Part shown: piece by piece, positions 4,687-11,462 of the stretch
Layout of the letters: each line of letters starts with the position of its first letter
Position numbering within the stretch: the stretch's first letter is position 1
Virus record (IMG/VR): IMGVR_UViG_3300035145_002886
Source: a virus
Direction: 5' to 3' (one strand)
DNA: 60,484 bases
The notes under the pieces: generated by a model
Database searches by the model: none
What the model saw: only the letters and a program-made list of their open reading frames with translations
What the model was told of the DNA's origin: nothing
Program-made: the position numbers and the translations under genes

Positions 4687-4794
4687 ATCTTTATCTTTTA
4701 TTACTATACAAATATAAACAAAAGACTTGATATAAAAAAATCTGGAGTGAATTATTTTTTTATCCGATTACTATATTAAAAGAAAAAGGAGAGT

Positions 4795-5031
4795 CAGCTT
4801 TACCGAAGCCAGACTCTCCTTGTCATCCCTCCGTCGGGGGACCCTCATACTAGTTTGGTTTTCCATAGGAACCGGTTGCACCTGTTAAGAACCTTTTTAT
4901 GGGCAGATTACTGCCTCGGTCAAATTGGTAGTCTGCTCTCTCTACCTATAACCAAGCATCTACGTCTTTTGTTTCTAGGGACAATTCTGACGCTCTGCTC
5001 TGGAGCCATTCCTAAACCCTCGGTAAAACTG
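4795..5031 (-). ncRNA. ~240-nt structured ncRNA of unknown family (RNase P-like or 6S-like are candidates)
   Basis: GC-rich island with no credible ORF; 14-bp terminal helix CAGUUUUACCGAGG/CUUCGGUAAAGCUG and several internal hairpins; own promoter (5070-5097) and an overlapping terminator GGAGAGUC..GACUCUCC-U-rich at ~4778-4821. Confidence 0.6.
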
Positions 5032-5069
5032 TTCTAGTTATTTTTGGGTATAATAACCTTGAACAGAAT

Positions 5070-5097
5070 GTTATATATCCTTTACAGGATTTGTTTC
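5070..5097 (-). promoter_or_regulatory. middle-type promoter GAAAC-N17-(A)TATA
   Basis: Same spacing at 5070-5097, 11417-11444, 22955-22982, 39850-39877, 49128-49155, 55815-55842 and 59258-59285, each upstream of a gene or RNA start. Confidence 0.8.
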
Positions 5098-5110
5098 AAC
5101 ACATTGGCAA

Positions 5111-5521
5111 TTATTTTCGAGTAAAGTATAGAGTTCTTAGCTGTTCTCCTACAATACCATACTCTGTCTTATTTTCTATTATTAATCCGTCGACTGACTT
5201 ATTAATAACCTTCCATTCTATATTTCTAATAAAAATACTCGTATCAACAAAAGTATATGAATGTGCATAATTGTTTGAATACATCCAACCTATAATTTCT
5301 ACCGGTTGAATTGTTCCCTCAACAATTGTAAATACATTTAAGCTGTCAAAAAAGAATACGACATCATCAAACACTGTATCTGTGGTAAAGACTAATCCTG
5401 GTAAGAAATAGTCTTCTTTAGATTCTAGGCGGTCTAGGTTCCATTCTCCAAGAACGCTATATGGTTCTTCTTTAACACAAGAGAATAAGATCAAAAATAG
5501 GAAGGTTAGAAGGTATCGCAT
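5111..5521 (-). CDS. putative lipoprotein (lipocalin-like)
   Basis: Signal peptide with lipobox LFSC followed by a VLGEWNL motif. Confidence 0.65.
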   Translation of the reverse strand: MRYLLTFLFLILFSCVKEEPYSVLGEWNLDRLESKEDYFLPGLVFTTDTVFDDVVFFFDSLNVFTIVEGTIQPVEIIGWMYSNNYAHSYTFVDTSIFIRNIEWKVINKSVDGLIIENKTEYGIVGEQLRTLYFTRK

Positions 5522-5525
5522 TGAA

Positions 5526-5999
5526 TTAAATTATTTTTGTAAATATCATTAGAATGATTGTCGATATTAATCCAATCATAAACGTCTCATGGCTATCAAA
5601 TTTGATTTTAACAGGACAACCAAGCTTCCATCCATTCCATTGAAAAAGACCAGGTCCTCCATGACATGAATGCCATTGCTTTTTACCAAAGATCCAATCT
5701 AATGTTTTATCAATTAGGTCAGGAAGGTTACCAAAAAACCAACCCAAGGCATATAACCATGGATAACCTGATTCAATTCCTAGAAGAATGAATATAATTA
5801 AGTATGGTACTTGAACTTTAAACAGGTTTATCCAGGGTCTATAGGGTGCTTCACCTAAATAGTCTAATAAGAAATGTGAAACATATGCCATAAAGGCTCC
5901 AGTTGCGTGTCCTATCATTGGCATTCCAATGCTATTAAATCCAAAAAATGGAAGAGCATATGAAATTGTTCCAGCTACTGCATGAGTATGTGGTTGCAT
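5526..5999 (-). CDS. membrane protein, possible YdjM-like metal-dependent hydrolase
   Basis: HTH, SHFLLD and LPDLID motifs within hydrophobic segments. Confidence 0.5.
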   Translation of the reverse strand: MQPHTHAVAGTISYALPFFGFNSIGMPMIGHATGAFMAYVSHFLLDYLGEAPYRPWINLFKVQVPYLIIFILLGIESGYPWLYALGWFFGNLPDLIDKTLDWIFGKKQWHSCHGGPGLFQWNGWKLGCPVKIKFDSHETFMIGLISTIILMIFTKII

Positions 6000-6017
6000 A
6001 ATTAAATTGTTTTTTTG

Positions 6018-6091
6018 TGGGCCCTGCAGGGCTCGAACCTGCGACCTACTGATTATGAGTCAGTTGCTCTAACCGGCTGAGCTAAGGGCCC
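6018..6091 (-). tRNA. tRNA-CAU (probably Ile2, lysidine type)
   Basis: Cloverleaf GGGCCCTTAGCTCAG...CT CAT AA...GGTTCGAGCC. Confidence 0.9.
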
Positions 6092-6160
6092 AAATAACCG
6101 GGTATTTGTTTTAAAGCTACCATAACCATCGCGAATGGGTAACTCCCGGTATTTACTCCA

Positions 6161-6228
6161 CTTGGACTCTCCTTTCGGTTGTAGGCGTGAGATTTGACGC
6201 CTCGTTGTTCGGCTTTCGCCTATCCAAG
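6161..6228 (-). ncRNA. small multibranch RNA with two GAAA tetraloops
   Basis: CUUGGA/UCCAAG closing stem, GGC-GAAA-GCC, AGGCG..CGCCU and CC-GAAA-GG. Confidence 0.5.
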
Positions 6229-6231
6229 AGC

Positions 6232-6348
6232 TGGGGAGTAGGGGATTCGAACCCCTACCTCTGCCTAACCAACTTAATCACACCGTGTAACTAGTATGAT
6301 GCTTTCTGTCTTAAGGTTGGAGCGTCGTACCACTTTGACTAACCCCCC
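6232..6348 (-). ncRNA. tRNA-like RNA with ~35-nt insertion in the anticodon arm
   Basis: Acceptor GGGGGGU/ACUCCCC, D arm, T arm AGGGG-UUCGAAU-CCCCU; CCAAC-CUUAAGA-[insert]-GUUGG. Confidence 0.7.
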
Positions 6349-6356
6349 GTATTTAG

Positions 6357-6430
6357 TGAACCAGACAGGATTCGAACCTGTGACCGTCTGCTTAGAAGGC
6401 AGATGCTCTATCCAGCTGAGCTACTGGTCC
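6357..6430 (-). tRNA. tRNA-Arg(UCU)
   Basis: Cloverleaf, loop CT TCT AA. Confidence 0.95.
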
Positions 6431-6444
6431 ATTCATTAAATTTG

Positions 6445-6530
6445 TACTCGAGGACGGGCTCGAACCGTCACGGACATTACTGCCCAAGGGATTTTAAGTC
6501 CCTCGTGTCTACCAATTCCACCACTCGAGC
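6445..6530 (-). tRNA. tRNA-Leu(UAA)
   Basis: Class II cloverleaf, loop CT TAA AA. Confidence 0.95.
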
Positions 6531-6533
6531 ATA

Positions 6534-6760
6534 CAGGTCCTAATTTCGTTTAGGACCAGGACGTGATCGGTTTAGGCTCTCAGCTCTAAACGATCAGCAG
6601 CTTACGCTGCTAGTGCAAATTCGTCGTTTGCGTAGATTAACCCACTCTCACTATCGCTATCAACCAATGTCAAAAGCCGGTCATCCCCATTGTAATTAAT
6701 GCCCTTGTGGAGATGGCGGGATTCGAACCCGCGTCCATCGATCCGCCAATAATGGTCATC
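6534..6760 (-). ncRNA. ssrA: tmRNA, circularly permuted (two-piece) gene; tag ANDEFALAA*
   Basis: The T-arm/acceptor 3' half GGACGCGGGTTCGAATCCCGCCATCTCCA (ends 6708) lies upstream of the 5' half GGGGATGACCGGCTTTTGAC (starts 6688). G3-U70 pair present; tag ORF at 6602-6631. Confidence 0.9.
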
Positions 6761-6773
6761 GAAGATTAATTTG

Positions 6774-6847
6774 TGGAGAATATCGGAGTCGAACCGATGA
6801 CCTCTTGCGTGCAAGGCAAGCGCTCTAGCCAGCTGAGCTAATTCCCC
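6774..6847 (-). tRNA. tRNA-Ala(UGC)
   Basis: Cloverleaf, G3-U70, loop CT TGC AC. Confidence 0.96.
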
Positions 6848-6853
6848 GTTAGT

Positions 6854-6930
6854 TGGCAGTCCAGACGGGACTCGAACCCGCGACCTCCGCCGTGACAGGG
6901 CGGCACTCTAACCAACTGAGCTACTGGACT
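6854..6930 (-). tRNA. tRNA-Asp(GUC)
   Basis: Cloverleaf, loop CT GTC AC, encoded CCA. Confidence 0.96.
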
Positions 6931-7204
6931 ATATTACACTTAGCGAGATTGACTAAGCTAGATTTTAACGGTTTAGTTTCCTCTTGAAACAAACAAACAT
7001 TAGTGTCTTACCACATAAAACTAAAAGTCAAGCTTTTGGGAGGCTCTACTATCCACCTTGATTCCCAGTCCCAGTATTTTAATCTTAAAGACCAGCTACT
7101 ACCTGTCTGATAGTCTTTCCTTCAATAAGAATTTCAGTTACCACCTGGGCATTAACTGAGGTATGTTAATGTTACCTAAACATCCAAGTATCTCTAACTT
7201 GGTT

Positions 7205-7292
7205 TGGCGGAAGATGTAGGATTCGAACCTACGGAGGTGTGACCCTCGCCGATTTTCAAGACCGGTGCATTCGACCACTCTGCCAATCTTCC
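7205..7292 (-). tRNA. tRNA-Ser(UGA)
   Basis: Class II cloverleaf, loop CT TGA AA, encoded CCA. Confidence 0.95.
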
Positions 7293-7317
7293 ATTGTTGA
7301 GATTTATATCTCATTAG

Positions 7318-7391
<74 letters not shown>

Positions 7392-7593
7392 ATATACTCT
7401 TTTTTTAAAATTAGCACTAAGAGAAACTAGCTTATCCTTTTAAAACTCTTAATACTTCGGGATTCAACCGCTCTAGTCTCAGGTTCAGCAGAACCATTCT
7501 GGTCGTTATTGACTAGCAACTCTTATAGTATATGGTGTCCATTTCTTCATCAATAGAGTGATAAGTCGTATTGATTACTCGAACAGTTTTTTG

Positions 7594-7667
7594 AGCCTCT
7601 TGAGGGATTCGAACCCACGACCTGCTGATTACAAATCAGCTGCTCTGGCCAGCTGAGCTAAAGAGGC
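7594..7667 (-). tRNA. tRNA-Thr(UGU)
   Basis: Cloverleaf, loop TT TGT AA. Confidence 0.95.
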
Positions 7668-7742
7668 AAAGGGGGACTTAGAACCTCGGTCTTATGCAAC
7701 CTAGGATTTTCTGCAGCCTGTTCATAGTCCCCAGTAAAATTG

Positions 7743-7815
7743 AGCAGAAGACGAGATTCGAACTCGCAACTTCCAGCTTGGAAGGCTGGCGCTCTACCAA
7801 TTGAGTTACTTCTGC
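7743..7815 (-). tRNA. tRNA-Gly(UCC)
   Basis: Cloverleaf, loop CT TCC AA. Confidence 0.95.
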
Positions 7816-7821
7816 TAATTG

Positions 7822-7903
7822 TGCGGATGGAGGGACTCGAACCCACAAGCCGTGAAGCACTGGTGCCTAAAACCAGCGTGTCTACCAATTTCACCACATC
7901 CGC
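7822..7903 (-). tRNA. tRNA-Leu(UAG)
   Basis: Class II cloverleaf, loop TT TAG GC. Confidence 0.95.
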
Positions 7904-7911
7904 ATAAATTG

Positions 7912-7983
7912 TAGCCCCTAGGAGAATCGAACTCCTCTTTCCAGGATGAAAACCTGGCGTCCTAACCGATAGACGAAGGGGCC
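7912..7983 (-). tRNA. tRNA-Glu(UUC)
   Basis: Cloverleaf, loop TT TTC AT. Confidence 0.95.
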
Positions 7984-7990
7984 ATGGTGC

Positions 7991-8006
7991 CAATATGTCA
8001 AAGAAC
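7991..8006 (-). promoter_or_regulatory. boxA-like antitermination element
   Basis: GTTCTTTGACATATTG just downstream of an early promoter; identical copy at 10894-10909 and variant GTTCTTTACATAA at 11158-11170. Confidence 0.7.
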
Positions 8007-8104
8007 TTCTTCTTTTAATTATATTGCTAATATAAACAAAGTTTTTTAAACCTGAAAATATTTTGCAACTTTTTTTTAACTCTTTTGAGTACACGTCTGA
8101 GTTG

Positions 8105-8176
8105 CGACCCTGGTAGGATTCGAACCTACGACCAATAGATTAACAGTCTACTGCGCTACCGCTGCGCCACAGAGTC
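8105..8176 (-). tRNA. tRNA-Asn(GUU)
   Basis: Cloverleaf, loop CT GTT AA. Confidence 0.95.
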
Positions 8177-8177
8177 T

Positions 8178-8287
8178 TTATGTATAAAATCATAAGATAT
8201 TTGAATCCATTTTTGTGGTTCGTTAAACATATCTTTCCACTTTATTCTTAAAACTTGCCAACCATTTTCAATGGCTAACTTGTCTTT
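8178..8287 (-). pseudogene. C-terminal remnant of a DUF559/Vsr-like endonuclease
   Basis: Frame KDKLAIENGWQVLRIKWKDMFNEPQKWIQISYDFIHK, preceded by an in-frame TAA and with no start codon. Confidence 0.55.
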
Positions 8288-8327
8288 TTAATACTTGTGA
8301 GTATTATATAACCCTTTTCCTAATTGT

Positions 8328-8789
8328 TTATTGAATTGTATCGGAATCTAAGATTACTACGTCTGGAATAACGATCGGTCTTATTTCAATATGGTCCTCC
8401 TGTCCTCTAACTGGCTTTTGAGTATAGCAGTAGATTGGGTGGCCATCCATATCATAGTAAAAGTATTCCTTCGTTGTTGGATCTAAGAATGCCCTATAGA
8501 TACCATTATTTTCATCAACGTATATAATTTTACCTGTTTCCGTGTCCGATCTGAGGCCGATTGAAAAGCTTTTACCTTTATTAGTCCTTGCCTCTTCGTA
8601 ATCTTGAATGTGCTGTTCGATCTTTTCCATTGATTCATTAATTTGTTGGTATTGATGAACCAGTTTATTCAGATCGCTGGCATAATTAATTACAGGGCGC
8701 ACATAGCTAATCAGGGTTATCAGTGCCCCGATTGCAGTGATTACAAAGATCACGTTGCTTGCCTTGTCTTTAAATACTTTAAATGCCAT
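8328..8789 (-). CDS. hypothetical membrane-anchored coiled-coil protein
   Basis: 153 aa with an N-terminal TM segment; GATATATA late motif at 8794-8801. Confidence 0.8.
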   Translation of the reverse strand: MAFKVFKDKASNVIFVITAIGALITLISYVRPVINYASDLNKLVHQYQQINESMEKIEQHIQDYEEARTNKGKSFSIGLRSDTETGKIIYVDENNGIYRAFLDPTTKEYFYYDMDGHPIYCYTQKPVRGQEDHIEIRPIVIPDVVILDSDTIQ

Positions 8790-8811
8790 ACATTATATAT
8801 CATTTAGTTTG

Positions 8812-8885
8812 AGGCGAAGGTTGGATTCGAACCAACGAATAACGGGTTTGCAAGCCGCTCCCTTAGACCGCTTGGGTACTTCGCC
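8812..8885 (-). tRNA. tRNA-Cys(GCA)
   Basis: Cloverleaf, U73, anticodon GCA. Confidence 0.9.
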
Positions 8886-8887
8886 GA

Positions 8888-8965
8888 TGGGGTGACCGAT
8901 CGGGTTTGAACCGACGACCTCCTGAACCACAATCAGGCGCTCTAACCAGCTGAGCTACGGACACC
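8888..8965 (-). tRNA. tRNA-His(GUG)
   Basis: G-1, C73, loop TT GTG GT, encoded CCA. Confidence 0.95.
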
Positions 8966-8969
8966 ATAT

Positions 8970-9046
8970 TGGTTGGAAGGGGCGGGCTCGAACCGCCGAC
9001 CTCTACATTATCAGTGTAGCGCTCTAACCAACTGAGCTACATTCCA
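8970..9046 (-). tRNA. tRNA-Ile(GAU)
   Basis: Cloverleaf, loop CT GAT AA, encoded CCA. Confidence 0.95.
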
Positions 9047-9054
9047 ATCTTTTG

Positions 9055-9127
9055 TCGGGATACCAGGGCTCGAACCTGGGACCTCCACGTCCCAAACGTG
9101 GCGCGCTACCAACTGTGCTACATCCCG
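9055..9127 (-). tRNA. tRNA-Pro(UGG)
   Basis: Cloverleaf, loop TT TGG GA. Confidence 0.95.
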
Positions 9128-9202
9128 TGGTCCGTATTTAGGGATATTTCTTAACCACCTCCTCAGCTCGGCAGCGGACATATCTGTCTCGTCTCGGTGG
9201 TA

Positions 9203-9284
9203 AATACTTCATAGTAGGATTCGAACCTACACCTATTCCTACATTTGCAACTGCGGTGATAGTGCCAACTTTTCCAAAAGTATT
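9203..9284 (-). ncRNA. degenerate tRNA-like RNA
   Basis: AAUACUU/AAGUAUU closing stem and a perfect T arm GUAGG-UUCGAAU-CCUAC; D and anticodon arms are poor. Confidence 0.5.
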
Positions 9285-9286
9285 TG

Positions 9287-9359
9287 TGGTTTCTACTGGA
9301 TTCGAACCAGTGACGCTCGGCTCTTCAGGCCGACGCTCTACCAACTGAGCTAAGAAACC
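9287..9359 (-). tRNA. tRNA-Phe(GAA)
   Basis: Cloverleaf, loop CT GAA GA. Confidence 0.95.
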
Positions 9360-9364
9360 AAACT

Positions 9365-9470
9365 CGTTCTACTGTCAGACTCGAACTGACATCCAGCCTT
9401 TCTGGTACTCTATGTACTATAGAGCAATCGGAGTCGAAACTGATGTGTTGCCTATTACACCAAGTAGAAC
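9365..9470 (-). ncRNA. tRNA-like RNA with 8-bp acceptor, T-loop in the anticodon position and two extra arms
   Basis: GUUCUACU/AGUAGAAC; D arm; AUCAG-UUUCGACU-CCGAU; two hairpins; GUCAG-UUCGAGU-CUGAC. Confidence 0.7.
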
Positions 9471-9474
9471 TTTG

Positions 9475-9548
9475 TACACCAGGAAGGATTCGAACCCTCA
9501 ACCTCCTGATCCGTAGTCAGGTGCTCTATCCAGTTGAGCTACTAGTGT
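9475..9548 (-). tRNA. tRNA-Arg(ACG)
   Basis: Cloverleaf, loop CT ACG GA. Confidence 0.95.
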
Positions 9549-9554
9549 ATTTAG

Positions 9555-9629
9555 TGGCAGGAGTGGGACTCGAACCCACGTCATTCGGCTTATGAGACCG
9601 AGCTGGAACCACCTCCAGTCCATCCTGCT
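9555..9629 (-). tRNA. tRNA-Met(CAU), atypical D arm
   Basis: Loop CT CAT AA, 1:72 mismatch, D arm CTGGA-GGTGGT-TCCAG. Confidence 0.85.
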
Positions 9630-9635
9630 ATATTG

Positions 9636-9710
9636 TGGGAAATATAGGATTCGAACCTATGACCCCTTGCTTGTAAGGCAAGTGCTCTGAACCAACTGAG
9701 CTAATTTCCC
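9636..9710 (-). tRNA. tRNA-Val(UAC)
   Basis: Cloverleaf, loop CT TAC AA. Confidence 0.95.
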
Positions 9711-9713
9711 GTT

Positions 9714-9805
9714 TGCTAGGGCAGGATTCGATACCTGCACGAAATGTCTCCACTCGAGTTGGACATTTTACGGAAGTCCGCGCCTCTATCTTGGGCTACC
9801 TAGCG
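9714..9805 (-). ncRNA. tRNA-like RNA lacking an anticodon loop
   Basis: GCUAGG/CCUAGC acceptor, D arm, GCGG-ACUU-CCGU mini arm, long variable arm AAAUGUC..GACAUUU, T arm GCAGG-UAUCGAAU-CCUGC. Confidence 0.65.
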
Positions 9806-9863
9806 CTTTTGCAAAATTTCTATGGTAGTGGCACCTTTACGCGGCCAATTGCTCTACTTGCGA

Positions 9864-9970
9864 TGGTTGATATGAGAGGATTCGAACCTCTTTACCTCCG
9901 CTCAACTATCCGCTCCGACTTTTACCAGAGAGATAGGAGGAACAGTGTGCCCACTACACTACTATCAATC
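9864..9970 (-). ncRNA. tRNA-like RNA with extended anticodon arm
   Basis: Long acceptor-like stem, D arm GUGU..ACAC, ~45-nt hairpin, T arm AGAGG-UUCGAAU-CCUCU. Confidence 0.6.
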
Positions 9971-10017
9971 GACAGTTTCGAACCTGTCAGTCTTAGGTTA
10001 ATTACTCCTAAGATTTG

Positions 10018-10099
10018 TTGGCAGGGAGGGATTCGAACCCCCGTACTCAATGAGAAAAGATTTACAGTCTTCCGCCTTTAACCACTCGGCCACCTACCA
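10018..10099 (-). tRNA. tRNA-Tyr(GUA)
   Basis: Class II cloverleaf, loop CT GTA AA. Confidence 0.95.
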
Positions 10100-10107
10100 A
10101 TATTTAA

Positions 10108-10196
10108 AAACACAACTCTATCTCCTTTGAGTGTTCAGGGTTGACATTGCCATTTTTCAGGTATTCTTACATATCCGTACTCCCTTAGTTGTGTTT
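10108..10196 (-). ncRNA. 6S-Flavo-like RNA
   Basis: Perfect 10-bp closing stem AAACACAACU/AGUUGUGUUU, with GGGAGUACGG and AACCCUGAAC motifs. The family assignment is from recall and was not searched. Confidence 0.5.
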
Positions 10197-10197
10197 G

Positions 10198-10270
10198 TGA
10201 CCCCTCAGGGGCTCGAACCCTGGACTCCCTCATTAAAAGTGAGGTGCTCTACCAACTGAGCTAAGAGGTC
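10198..10270 (-). tRNA. tRNA-Lys(UUU)
   Basis: Cloverleaf, loop CT TTT AA. Confidence 0.95.
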
Positions 10271-10273
10271 AAT

Positions 10274-10364
10274 ATAGATGAATAGAGGATTCGAACCTCG
10301 CTACAATTTAACTCCATTATAACAACCTGAATCGAACAGGACACGACCAACTCGCTTCATCTAT
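10274..10364 (-). ncRNA. tRNA-like RNA with two T arms
   Basis: 9-bp AUAGAUGAA/UUCAUCUAU; D-like arm; CCUG-UUCGAUU-CAGG; extra arm; GAGG-UUCGAAU-CCUC. Confidence 0.7.
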
Positions 10365-10367
10365 TAG

Positions 10368-10443
10368 TTGCGATTGAGGAATCGAACCTCGGAGGGGAGC
10401 TACCCAATACGTCTCATGAGAACGTCTCTGTACCACCATCGCA
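10368..10443 (-). ncRNA. D-arm-less tRNA-like RNA with CAU anticodon
   Basis: UGCGAU/AUCGCA; ACGUU-CUCAUGA-GACGU; variable arm GGG..CCC; T arm GAGG-UUCGAUU-CCUC. Confidence 0.6.
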
Positions 10444-10453
10444 TTAATATTTT

Positions 10454-10620
10454 ACTTCTAAAACTTCCCATTGGTTTACCCAGAAGGAATCATTCTAAAC
10501 CTTTACTGCAGTTAATCAGTTTAGCCTGGTTGAAGATCACCAATTTCTTACGAGCTTTCTCATCAACTCGGTGGTGAACCGAGCCTAGATACCAATACTA
10601 ACTCTACAACTTTTAGAAGT
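10454..10620 (-). ncRNA. ~165-nt structured RNA, unknown family
   Basis: 10-bp closing stem ACUUCUAAAA/UUUUAGAAGU, internal AUUGGU/ACCAAU and CUCGGU..ACCGAG hairpin. Confidence 0.5.
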
Positions 10621-10713
10621 CTTAAACTAAATTTGAGTTGCAAACGTTGTAGGTCTCTTTGCAAATCTATCCTACCGCTTCTACGTTCCCTTTCGGGCTC
10701 CATTAGTTTAAGA
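10620..10713 (-). ncRNA. ~94-nt structured RNA, unknown family
   Basis: 11-bp closing stem UCUUAAACUAA/UUAGUUUAAGA, CCC-GAAA-GGG and GUAGG..CCUAC. Confidence 0.5.
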
Positions 10714-10718
10714 ATTTG

Positions 10719-10789
10719 TTACCAGGCCTAGATTCGAACTAGGATTTTCTGAGTCAAAGTCAGACGTGCTGCCGTTGCACCACCCGGCA
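10719..10789 (-). tRNA. tRNA-Gln(UUG)
   Basis: Cloverleaf, loop CT TTG AC. Confidence 0.93.
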
Positions 10790-10992
10790 ATTATTAAGAG
10801 AGCCGGTCTCTCTAAGACTTACTTAAGCATATCAGCTGGGCCGTTAGACCAGCGTTCATATCAAAAGTAATATCTGTATTTTCTTAATTTTGCCAATATG
10901 TCAAAGAACTACTTTGTTTTAATTACAGTGCTAATATAAACATTATATTTGACACTGAAAAACTTTTTTCAACTTTTTTTCAAAGTTTTTTG

Positions 10993-11079
10993 CGGAAAGT
11001 AGAGGATTCGAACCTCTGGATCCCTCTCGAGATCAACTCCTTAGCAGGGAGCCACAATCGACCGCTCTGTCAACTTTCC
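10993..11079 (-). tRNA. tRNA-Ser(GCU)
   Basis: Class II cloverleaf, loop CT GCT AA. Confidence 0.95.
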
Positions 11080-11085
11080 AATTTG

Positions 11086-11156
11086 CACGTCCACAAGGAT
11101 TCGAACCCTGATCAACGGTTTTGGAGACCGCTATTCTACCATTGAACTATGGACGT
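11086..11156 (-). tRNA. tRNA-Trp(CCA)
   Basis: Cloverleaf, loop CT CCA AA. Confidence 0.95.
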
Positions 11157-11240
11157 ATTATGTAAAGAACATTGTTTTCTAATTACTATGCTAATATAAA
11201 CATTTTTTTTGAACCGGAAAACTTTTACTAAAAAAAGTTC

Positions 11241-11273
11241 AAAAAAAATGGGTCCCAATTTCTTGGAACCCAT
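11241..11273 (-). terminator. intrinsic terminator (candidate attenuator)
   Basis: AUGGGUUCCAA-GAAA-UUGGGACCCAU followed by a long U tract. Confidence 0.9.
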
Positions 11274-11298
11274 GTCAAATTAAATATGTTAAAATATA

Positions 11299-11394
11299 CT
11301 ACATCTTAACGGCAACACGGGTTCCATTCTGACAAGGACTCCAGTCCTTAGCCTGTTGAGAATAAAACGGAATATGTGTTGCGTTCAGTTGCAT
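11299..11394 (-). CDS. putative 31-aa leader peptide MQLNATHIPFYSQQAKDWSPCQNGTRVAVKM
   Basis: ATG ~25 nt downstream of the GAAAC-N17 promoter (11417-11444); contains a 13-nt complement of the terminator's 5' arm. Confidence 0.65.
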   Translation of the reverse strand: MQLNATHIPFYSQQAKDWSPCQNGTRVAVKM

Positions 11395-11462
11395 TGTTTT
11401 CTAATTTTTAGATAGTATATATAAAGATGTTTTAAAAAAGTTTCAAAAACTTTAGATTTATT

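Follow-up and report, generated by a model that had tools for sequence, protein, structure and literature searches.

In Escherichia coli, the amino-acid operons thr and ilvGMEDA are controlled by multivalent leader-peptide transcription attenuators. Here we describe an array of RNA genes from an aquatic jumbo phage, located at about positions 4,795–11,444 of a 60,484-nucleotide stretch (the window; IMG/VR record IMGVR_UViG_3300035145_002886). The array carries 25 tRNA genes and a permuted transfer-messenger RNA (tmRNA) gene. In the reading that we consider probable on balance, it is headed by what is likely a ribosome-stalling, codon-sensing leader attenuator and is interspersed with conserved, swappable RNA cassettes. 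The array features described below and the adjoining sigma-factor gene lie on the minus strand; related loci are designated by L numbers.

Why tRNA genes should be carried by phages is a question of long standing. Leader-peptide attenuation has also been indicated for amino-acid operons of Flavobacterium psychrophilum (PMC9723704). Large-phage tRNA clusters include those of T4, with the extra small RNAs RNAC and RNAD (PMC3014915), T5, with 23 tRNAs (PMC11464382), and the cluster C1 mycobacteriophages (PMC10264068), and phage tRNAs that resist host nucleases are already known (PMC10264068, PMC11464382). Two-piece tmRNAs have been counted in 53 phage cases, 50 of them aquatic, and their main bacterial clades are the Alpha-, Beta- and Cyanobacteria (PMC11915505, PMC9004378). 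No account of an attenuator gating a phage tRNA array was found in the open-access literature.

Like the amino-acid operon attenuators, the phage locus has a short leader open reading frame (ORF) and predicted alternative antiterminator and terminator structures, and in relatives with split arrays the leader codons match the downstream product. Unlike them, its output is tRNA and tmRNA genes; the leader codons occur singly, over at most 17 decoding classes and without runs; the match is at the level of isoacceptors; and the leader simulation works without a separate 1:2 helix. As in the T4, T5 and C1 clusters, the tRNAs are co-oriented and interspersed with other RNAs and ORFs, and Pnk/Rnl1-type repair genes lie elsewhere in the genome. 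The array differs from those clusters in having far more accessory RNAs without an Rfam family, and in its predicted leader-terminator switch.

A leader ORF and terminator precede the tRNA array

The leader region begins with a promoter-like motif, TGAAAC-N-ATATATA (11416–11445), which adjoins the sigma-factor gene and is followed by a 31-codon ORF (11299–11394) with homologs in L005, L069, L080 and L002. The ORF encodes every amino acid except Glu (19 of 20; p = 0.010 relative to nucleotide shuffles). Its codons 23–27 form a predicted antiterminator strand (11314–11327) complementary to the 5' arm of an intrinsic terminator with an 11-bp stem and a U-tract (11241–11273), a pairing (dG −20.4) exceeding that of nucleotide shuffles (p = 0.002). 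The sequence-only reading had proposed an upstream attenuator, and both its leader ORF and its terminator are present, with a switch predicted from their complementarity.

Leader loci in relatives were fetched via sigma homology and the tmRNA pattern. Seventy-five matches of the promoter motif with a tRNA 100–450 nt downstream collapsed into 20 distinct sites, all of which had an ATG within 60 nt (20/20). Seventeen of these sites opened ORFs of 24–45 amino acids, where the chance of such a leader ORF is 0.11 per site; the other three opened ordinary genes of 58–63 amino acids and were dropped. In an enlarged locus set with 39 distinct ORFs of 18–50 amino acids behind the motif, a terminator followed 16 of the 17 tRNA-proximal ORFs versus 5 of the 22 others. 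One of these five, L080, lies at a contig end and was added by homology as the 18th leader. The 18 leaders were sorted by eye into 10 families. The spacer between stop codon and terminator was 23–29 nt in 17/18 leaders, and the 3' part of the ORF paired with the terminator 5' arm better than in nucleotide shuffles (p < 0.05) in 14/18 leaders, representing 7/10 families. Amino-acid diversity was also raised (mean z 0.98 in leaders versus −0.27 in 21 control ORFs; family-level p = 0.003). Not every leader draws on nearly the full set of 20 amino acids: family B is strongly low, with 9–10, and instead matches its six-tRNA block. No host-type promoter motif (TATATT(T/A)G) lay between terminator and first tRNA in 11/17 leaders.

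Stalling was simulated by folding the leader with the ribosome footprint masked. With a ribosome at codons 2–19 of the window leader, the terminator arm was sequestered to ~0.8, and from codon 21 on the arm was free; this two-state profile was obtained for the window and for most relatives. In the mechanism that the simulation suggests, a ribosome at about codon 21 or beyond would allow the terminator to form, while a stall on codons 2–19, or a failure of ribosomes to load, would let the end of the ORF pair with the terminator arm and so permit read-through. Slow decoding, through depleted, uncharged or cut tRNAs, would then raise tRNA and tmRNA output from the phage-sigma promoter.

Leader codons match the tRNAs directly downstream

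The codon comparison was prompted by the family B leader, whose opening 15 codons are all decoded by the six tRNAs in the next block. The zone compared ran from codon 2 to a point four codons short of the pairing strand. In four arrays that are split into units, zone codons were read by the downstream unit and not by the other unit in 13/14, 17/17, 13/13 and 16/17 cases (59/61; Fisher p = 2e-11). The p-value was 3e-6 without family B, 1e-4 without family B on a leader-pooled background, and 2e-7 when whole ORFs were used. In cross-tests the array's own leader ranked 1 of 10 in 4/4 cases, and against nucleotide shuffles the four arrays gave p = 0.0001, 0.006, 0.0003 and 0.1. Since in these four arrays the codons ahead of the pairing strand correspond to the tRNAs that immediately follow, we regard the leader as a likely tRNA-sensing attenuator. 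If leaders are indeed composed of codons for the tRNAs under their control, the phage's monitoring of those tRNAs would be written in its sequence.

Several results weigh against this reading. Against synonymous shuffles, the pairing reached p = 0.062 in the window and p < 0.05 in only 8/18 leaders, and 3 of the 10 families had no significant pairing in either shuffle test. The window array is unsplit, which makes the codon-match test inapplicable to it, and its own zone covers 15/24 decoding classes in 18 codons (p = 0.03). The four split cases come from one clade, two of them from one genome, and were known before the zone rule was fixed; the leaders of L174 and L024 correspond poorly to the tRNAs visible in those loci, both of which are cut. 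With no ribosome in the simulation, the arm was sequestered to 0.89, which predicts read-through; what the switch registers may thus be a failure of translation of any kind. Finally, the window has one host-type promoter motif between terminator and first tRNA and two further below. The attenuator would therefore not be the sole gate but would add to a basal tRNA and tmRNA supply, presumably from these three promoters.

Two leaders within one array, L007:9638 and L007:10820, share out the codons between them: those of one correspond only to the first block of six tRNAs, and the other uses 20/20 amino acids in 28 codons.

Promoter motifs and the sigma-factor gene

The upstream neighbour of the array encodes an extracytoplasmic function (ECF)-type sigma factor of the phage (11463–12122; Pfam Sigma70_r2 and r4_2), which probably reads the TGAAAC...ATATATA promoter class. 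This motif occurs five times in the 166.6-kb genome when wider spacing is allowed, and twice with the strict pattern versus 0–1 times across 20 shuffles; it also precedes the leaders of relatives. A leader-type motif further lies ahead of an ORF inside tRNA arrays at L171:17767 and L173:14242, which we take to encode a GIY-YIG homing endonuclease from its looks.

A motif search found three host-type promoter motifs, each with a boxA-like element: A (TATATTAG; 11160–11200, before tRNA-Trp; missing in relative L069), B (10898–10940) and C (7995–8036, before tRNA-Glu). Genome-wide, there are 15 minus-strand TATATT(T/A)G motifs, 12 ahead of ORFs and three ahead of RNA genes, and the element GTTCTTT(G)ACAT follows exactly the latter three (3/15). 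The element resembles the boxA consensus; its position and its restriction to RNA-gene promoters are what the present data contribute. The boxA-bearing promoters of the sequence-only reading are thus borne out as motifs. In all, the span contains or borders five promoter motifs, of which three lie downstream of the leader terminator. A sigma-70 scan (20 sites versus 14.6 ± 3.7 in shuffles) was uninformative for this promoter type.

TATATT(T/A)G resembles TAnnTTTG, the sigma-A box of flavobacteria (PMC9723704), and we therefore infer that the host belongs to the Bacteroidota.

A full tRNA complement and a two-piece tmRNA

ARAGORN and Rfam agree on the 25 co-oriented tRNA genes that had been noticed in the sequence (6017–11156). 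They cover all 24 decoding classes plus the initiator and, judged by their sequences, are a complete minimal decoding set. The three tRNAs with a CAT anticodon appear from sequence features to be Ile2-like (6017), initiator-like (7317) and an atypical Met (9554). The last of these (9554–9629) has an initiator-like 1:72 mismatch and an altered anticodon stem; similar genes are present in L007, L099 and L123. An apparent tRNA-Trp (L007:11130–11215) and an apparent tRNA-Asp (L009:11572–11644) were missed by default ARAGORN. Because that program misses real tRNA genes, tRNA counts for relatives are lower bounds.

The permuted, two-piece tmRNA gene (6531–6772) likewise stood up to inspection. It scores 60.2 bits against a cut-off of 47 with Rfam RF04321, the T arm and acceptor 3' strand precede the 5' strand, the acceptor has G3.U70, and the tag is ANDEFALAA, ending ALAA-stop. 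Homologs occur in 40 distinct relatives, and by sequence the gene is intact. Gene order, G3.U70 acceptor and ALAA tag are those of known two-piece tmRNAs; unlike in the bacterial clades named above, this one sits in a phage with Bacteroidota-type promoter motifs. No SmpB gene was found in the phage's own genome (59% complete), and host SmpB is assumed. The earlier proposal that the region senses translational damage and supplies tRNAs and ribosome rescue gains support from the comparative codon-matched attenuator, the full tRNA set and the intact tmRNA.

tRNA-like RNAs and other cassettes

The roughly seven tRNA mimics noticed from the sequence were recovered. Six show up as T-arm hairpins located outside tRNA calls, one of them with two such hairpins; the seventh (9714–9803) was returned by ARAGORN under relaxed settings. 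Across 95 arrays, T-arm hairpin density was 1.53/kb inside (243 in 158,773 bases) versus 0.041/kb outside (231 in 5,622,534), ~37-fold, where the counts take in contigs present in duplicate, tmRNAs and some genuine tRNAs that ARAGORN did not call.

The mimic mC (10367–10444) has an acceptor and a T arm, no normal D arm and a conserved CAU hairpin. CAT is present in 9/9 sequences, the CAU stem is 100% paired with three pairs changed on both sides, and 0/500 shuffles reach the observed covariation (a control that ignores relatedness). When 39 sequence sources were searched with a covariance model of mC, it returned its nine training sequences and, beyond these, weak tRNA matches alone. mE (9864–10012) keeps acceptor, D and T arms around a variable middle and has two conserved 5' hairpins, with two-sided change in 11/20 pairs (7 sequences). 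In mG (9367–9470), three hairpins replace the anticodon arm, and the L005 homolog is 84% identical with paired stem changes; mH (9203–9284) has a different loop in L005, and mI (6232–6348; Rfam tRNA 39.9 bits) has an enlarged middle that differs in its three homologs. In mD (10275–10363), the place of the anticodon is taken by a second T-loop-like hairpin, and mF (9714–9803) has an 8-nt T-loop and an enlarged anticodon loop. Their homologs are nearly identical (97–98% for mD; two for mF) and thus uninformative on anticodon-loop conservation. The anticodon loop is therefore conserved in one of the seven (mC) and varies in four (mE, mG, mH, mI). As those four keep acceptor and T arm and change the middle, a processing scaffold fits better than anticodon bait: most likely, the mimics use the acceptor/T-arm shape for excision and stabilisation alongside the tRNAs.

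RNA Z (6935–7082) is conserved in 14 sequences, and its 5' part is a bulged stem; 0/500 shuffles reach its covariation. GGTCCGA occurs in 3/14 copies, GGTC in 9/14 and TTGAC in 14/14, and the window copy is degenerate. The exact GGTCCGA with the bulged stem is found at L128:3858–3924, L134:11259–11325 and L145:11790–11860. In bacterial genomes the motif gave two exact matches, with no tRNA nearby.

The 240-nt RNA of the sequence-only reading corresponds, as we take it, to a terminal structured RNA of ~275 nt (4790–5065), with its own TGAAAC-class promoter motif (5072–5098) and terminator, which make it a separate unit. Two-sided changes are seen in 9/59 pairs (4 sequences); a wider search gave 22 loci, four with long matches, one of these new. 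It was considered as a T-box (no Rfam match) and as a gene, and is not read as a gene because the internal ATG frame is lost in L078. In a metatranscriptome-labelled run (flagged 'probably DNA'), a relative's 219-nt contig covers 4844–5057 without a loose end, at a depth of 626 versus 2–23 for the other listed pieces; the DNA run of the same study is flat at 30–42. Contig depths in the former run cannot rank genes, and that contig may itself be what brought the run to light, so we treat it as no more than a weak hint of expression. Together, mC, mE, Z and the terminal RNA are covariation-supported RNA families without an Rfam entry.

All 22 accessory elements have at least one homolog, nearly always beside tRNAs, although for five of them only in the closest relative. 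The many structured spacer RNAs described earlier are not confirmed as such: the elements recur, but as folds in their own right only 6/22 reach z ≤ −2. In the comparison of island content across related phages that had been proposed, the closest relative (sigma factor 96% identical) retains 12/22 cassettes along with the tRNA set, whose order is almost unchanged, while 14 other arrays keep 0–5 of 22, in other neighbourhoods (some loci are cut). On this comparison the accessory RNAs are conserved but swappable cassettes. The single regulated system of the sequence-only reading holds up only in part, given five promoter motifs, a separate terminal RNA and cassettes that shift place and membership between relatives.

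RNA repair genes and a candidate Ro60-like gene elsewhere in the genome

Outside the window, the phage's own genome (L209) encodes a Pnkp phosphatase (L209:11002–11484), a T4 Rnl1-type ligase (L209:12162–13241), a CCA-adding-type enzyme (L209:17480–18634) and an AAA_33 kinase (L209:18810–19211). By sequence these constitute a tRNA repair and maturation kit; T4 repairs PrrC-cut tRNA with Pnk and Rnl1 (PMC3014915). The same part of the genome holds a DUF2828/DUF7788 gene (L209:9374–10804) with the leader's promoter class upstream. TROVE/Ro60 proteins make up 26/30 of its ESM feature matches (score 0.92), which we treat as a lead; a sequence search found no PDB relative.

Alternative explanations

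The genes, the leader, the terminator with its complementarity to the leader, and the occurrence of these features in relatives can be read directly from the sequences, and competing accounts concern what they do. The sequence-only reading took the whole span for one integrated counter-defence system in which the mimics decoy anticodon nucleases. mC, with its invariant CAU hairpin and covarying stem, counts in favour of this model. An anticodon stem-loop of 17 nt is by itself a substrate for PrrC (PMC3014915), which makes a hairpin decoy feasible, and the genome carries the repair genes described above. But in four of the seven mimics the anticodon position varies although acceptor and T arm are retained, and the cassettes are not inherited together as a set. 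The phage tRNA tested against PARIS resists cleavage while the host tRNA is still degraded (PMC11464382), and a search of the open-access literature for decoys in tRNA arrays found nothing relevant. With a conserved anticodon loop in a single mimic, the decoy role is unsupported, and we judge the model as a whole quite improbable. A different function for the accessory RNAs, as Y-RNA-like partners of the TROVE/Ro60-like protein in an RNA repair or decay module, is suggested by the promoter class and feature matches of the DUF2828 gene and by RNA Z, since GGUCCGA is a motif contacted by Ro60 (PMC4201824). YrlA (RF02553), a tRNA mimic with D, T and acceptor features, is found in phages with a Ro60 gene (PMC4201824), and the array mimics keep such features in a phage with a candidate gene of that kind. 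However, YrlA combines a permuted order with a closed acceptor and a stem that binds Ro, whereas the parts of the seven mimics run in the usual tRNA order from 5' to 3'. The TROVE-like gene lies ~120 kb from the array. Rfam Y RNA and YrlA models do not match Z, the weak YrlA matches in the region fall on tandem tRNAs (a known false positive), the window's Z copy is without the motif, and the DUF2828 protein is without a solved-structure relative by sequence. This role is unlikely, if somewhat less so than the decoy model.

A third account is an ordinary large-phage tRNA cluster with a plain short ORF, a constitutive terminator and mimics that are decaying tRNA relics. It would sit well with the few elements that out-fold their shuffles and the five with a homolog only in the closest relative, and the host-type promoters could drive the array alone. 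It leaves unexplained why spacer, pairing and codon match stay constant across unrelated leader sequences, and why mC, mE and Z covary; we hold it to be the least probable of the three. Beyond the codon-sensing attenuator itself, one may tentatively envisage a feedback circuit in which codon-written leaders gate tRNA blocks. Loss of host tRNAs, including loss to anti-phage nucleases, would trigger replacements and tmRNA, and tRNA-scaffolded cassettes such as the CAU-hairpin RNA would add swappable counter-defence or Ro60-linked repair. This wider circuit is possible, and we regard it as clearly less probable than the attenuator reading.

Other features of the array and its genome

Two closed-stem RNAs, X2 (10455–10620) and X1 (10621–10713), have folding z of −2.2 and −3.1, homologs in L009/L011 and no Rfam family. 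A 6S-like RNA had also been reported for the region, and our best guess for it is a rod with internal loops at 7062–7150. It is only loosely like 6S RNA (89 nt; folding z −1.3), and its one homolog is in the close relative L005. The 6S families in Rfam (RF00013, 6S RNA, and RF01685, 6S-Flavo) matched nothing in the region at E ≤ 5, nor three candidate stretches at E ≤ 10, and the assignment was dropped. In the distant relative L015, a manA RNA motif scores just above the Rfam cut-off (L015:18628–18846).

Nor is the span RNA-only. A gene for a 153-amino-acid protein lies inside the array (8328–8789), with 65–99% homologs in related arrays and no Pfam family above cut-off. The ORF list gives two more between the last tRNA and the terminal RNA (5526–5999 and 5111–5521), both absent at that place in L005. 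With the leader, the three ORFs occupy 21.7% of the span. After the 153-amino-acid ORF, a 37-codon open remnant (8177–8287) had no homolog in the loci fetched; it resembles the C-terminus of a DUF559/Vsr-type endonuclease.

The window belongs to a T4-like jumbo phage contig of 166.6 kb, classed as linear. Its major capsid protein is 51% identical to that of an uncultured phage and 37–38% to those of Lak phages, and no GenBank phage record covered >11% of the array. Two DNA runs contain long pieces of the region with 0–1 letters different, and one of them may represent the sample of origin. Near one end of the window, the small ORFs at 101–328 and 1419–1637 are near-identical duplicates, and several small ORFs near them share the same last four or five residues.

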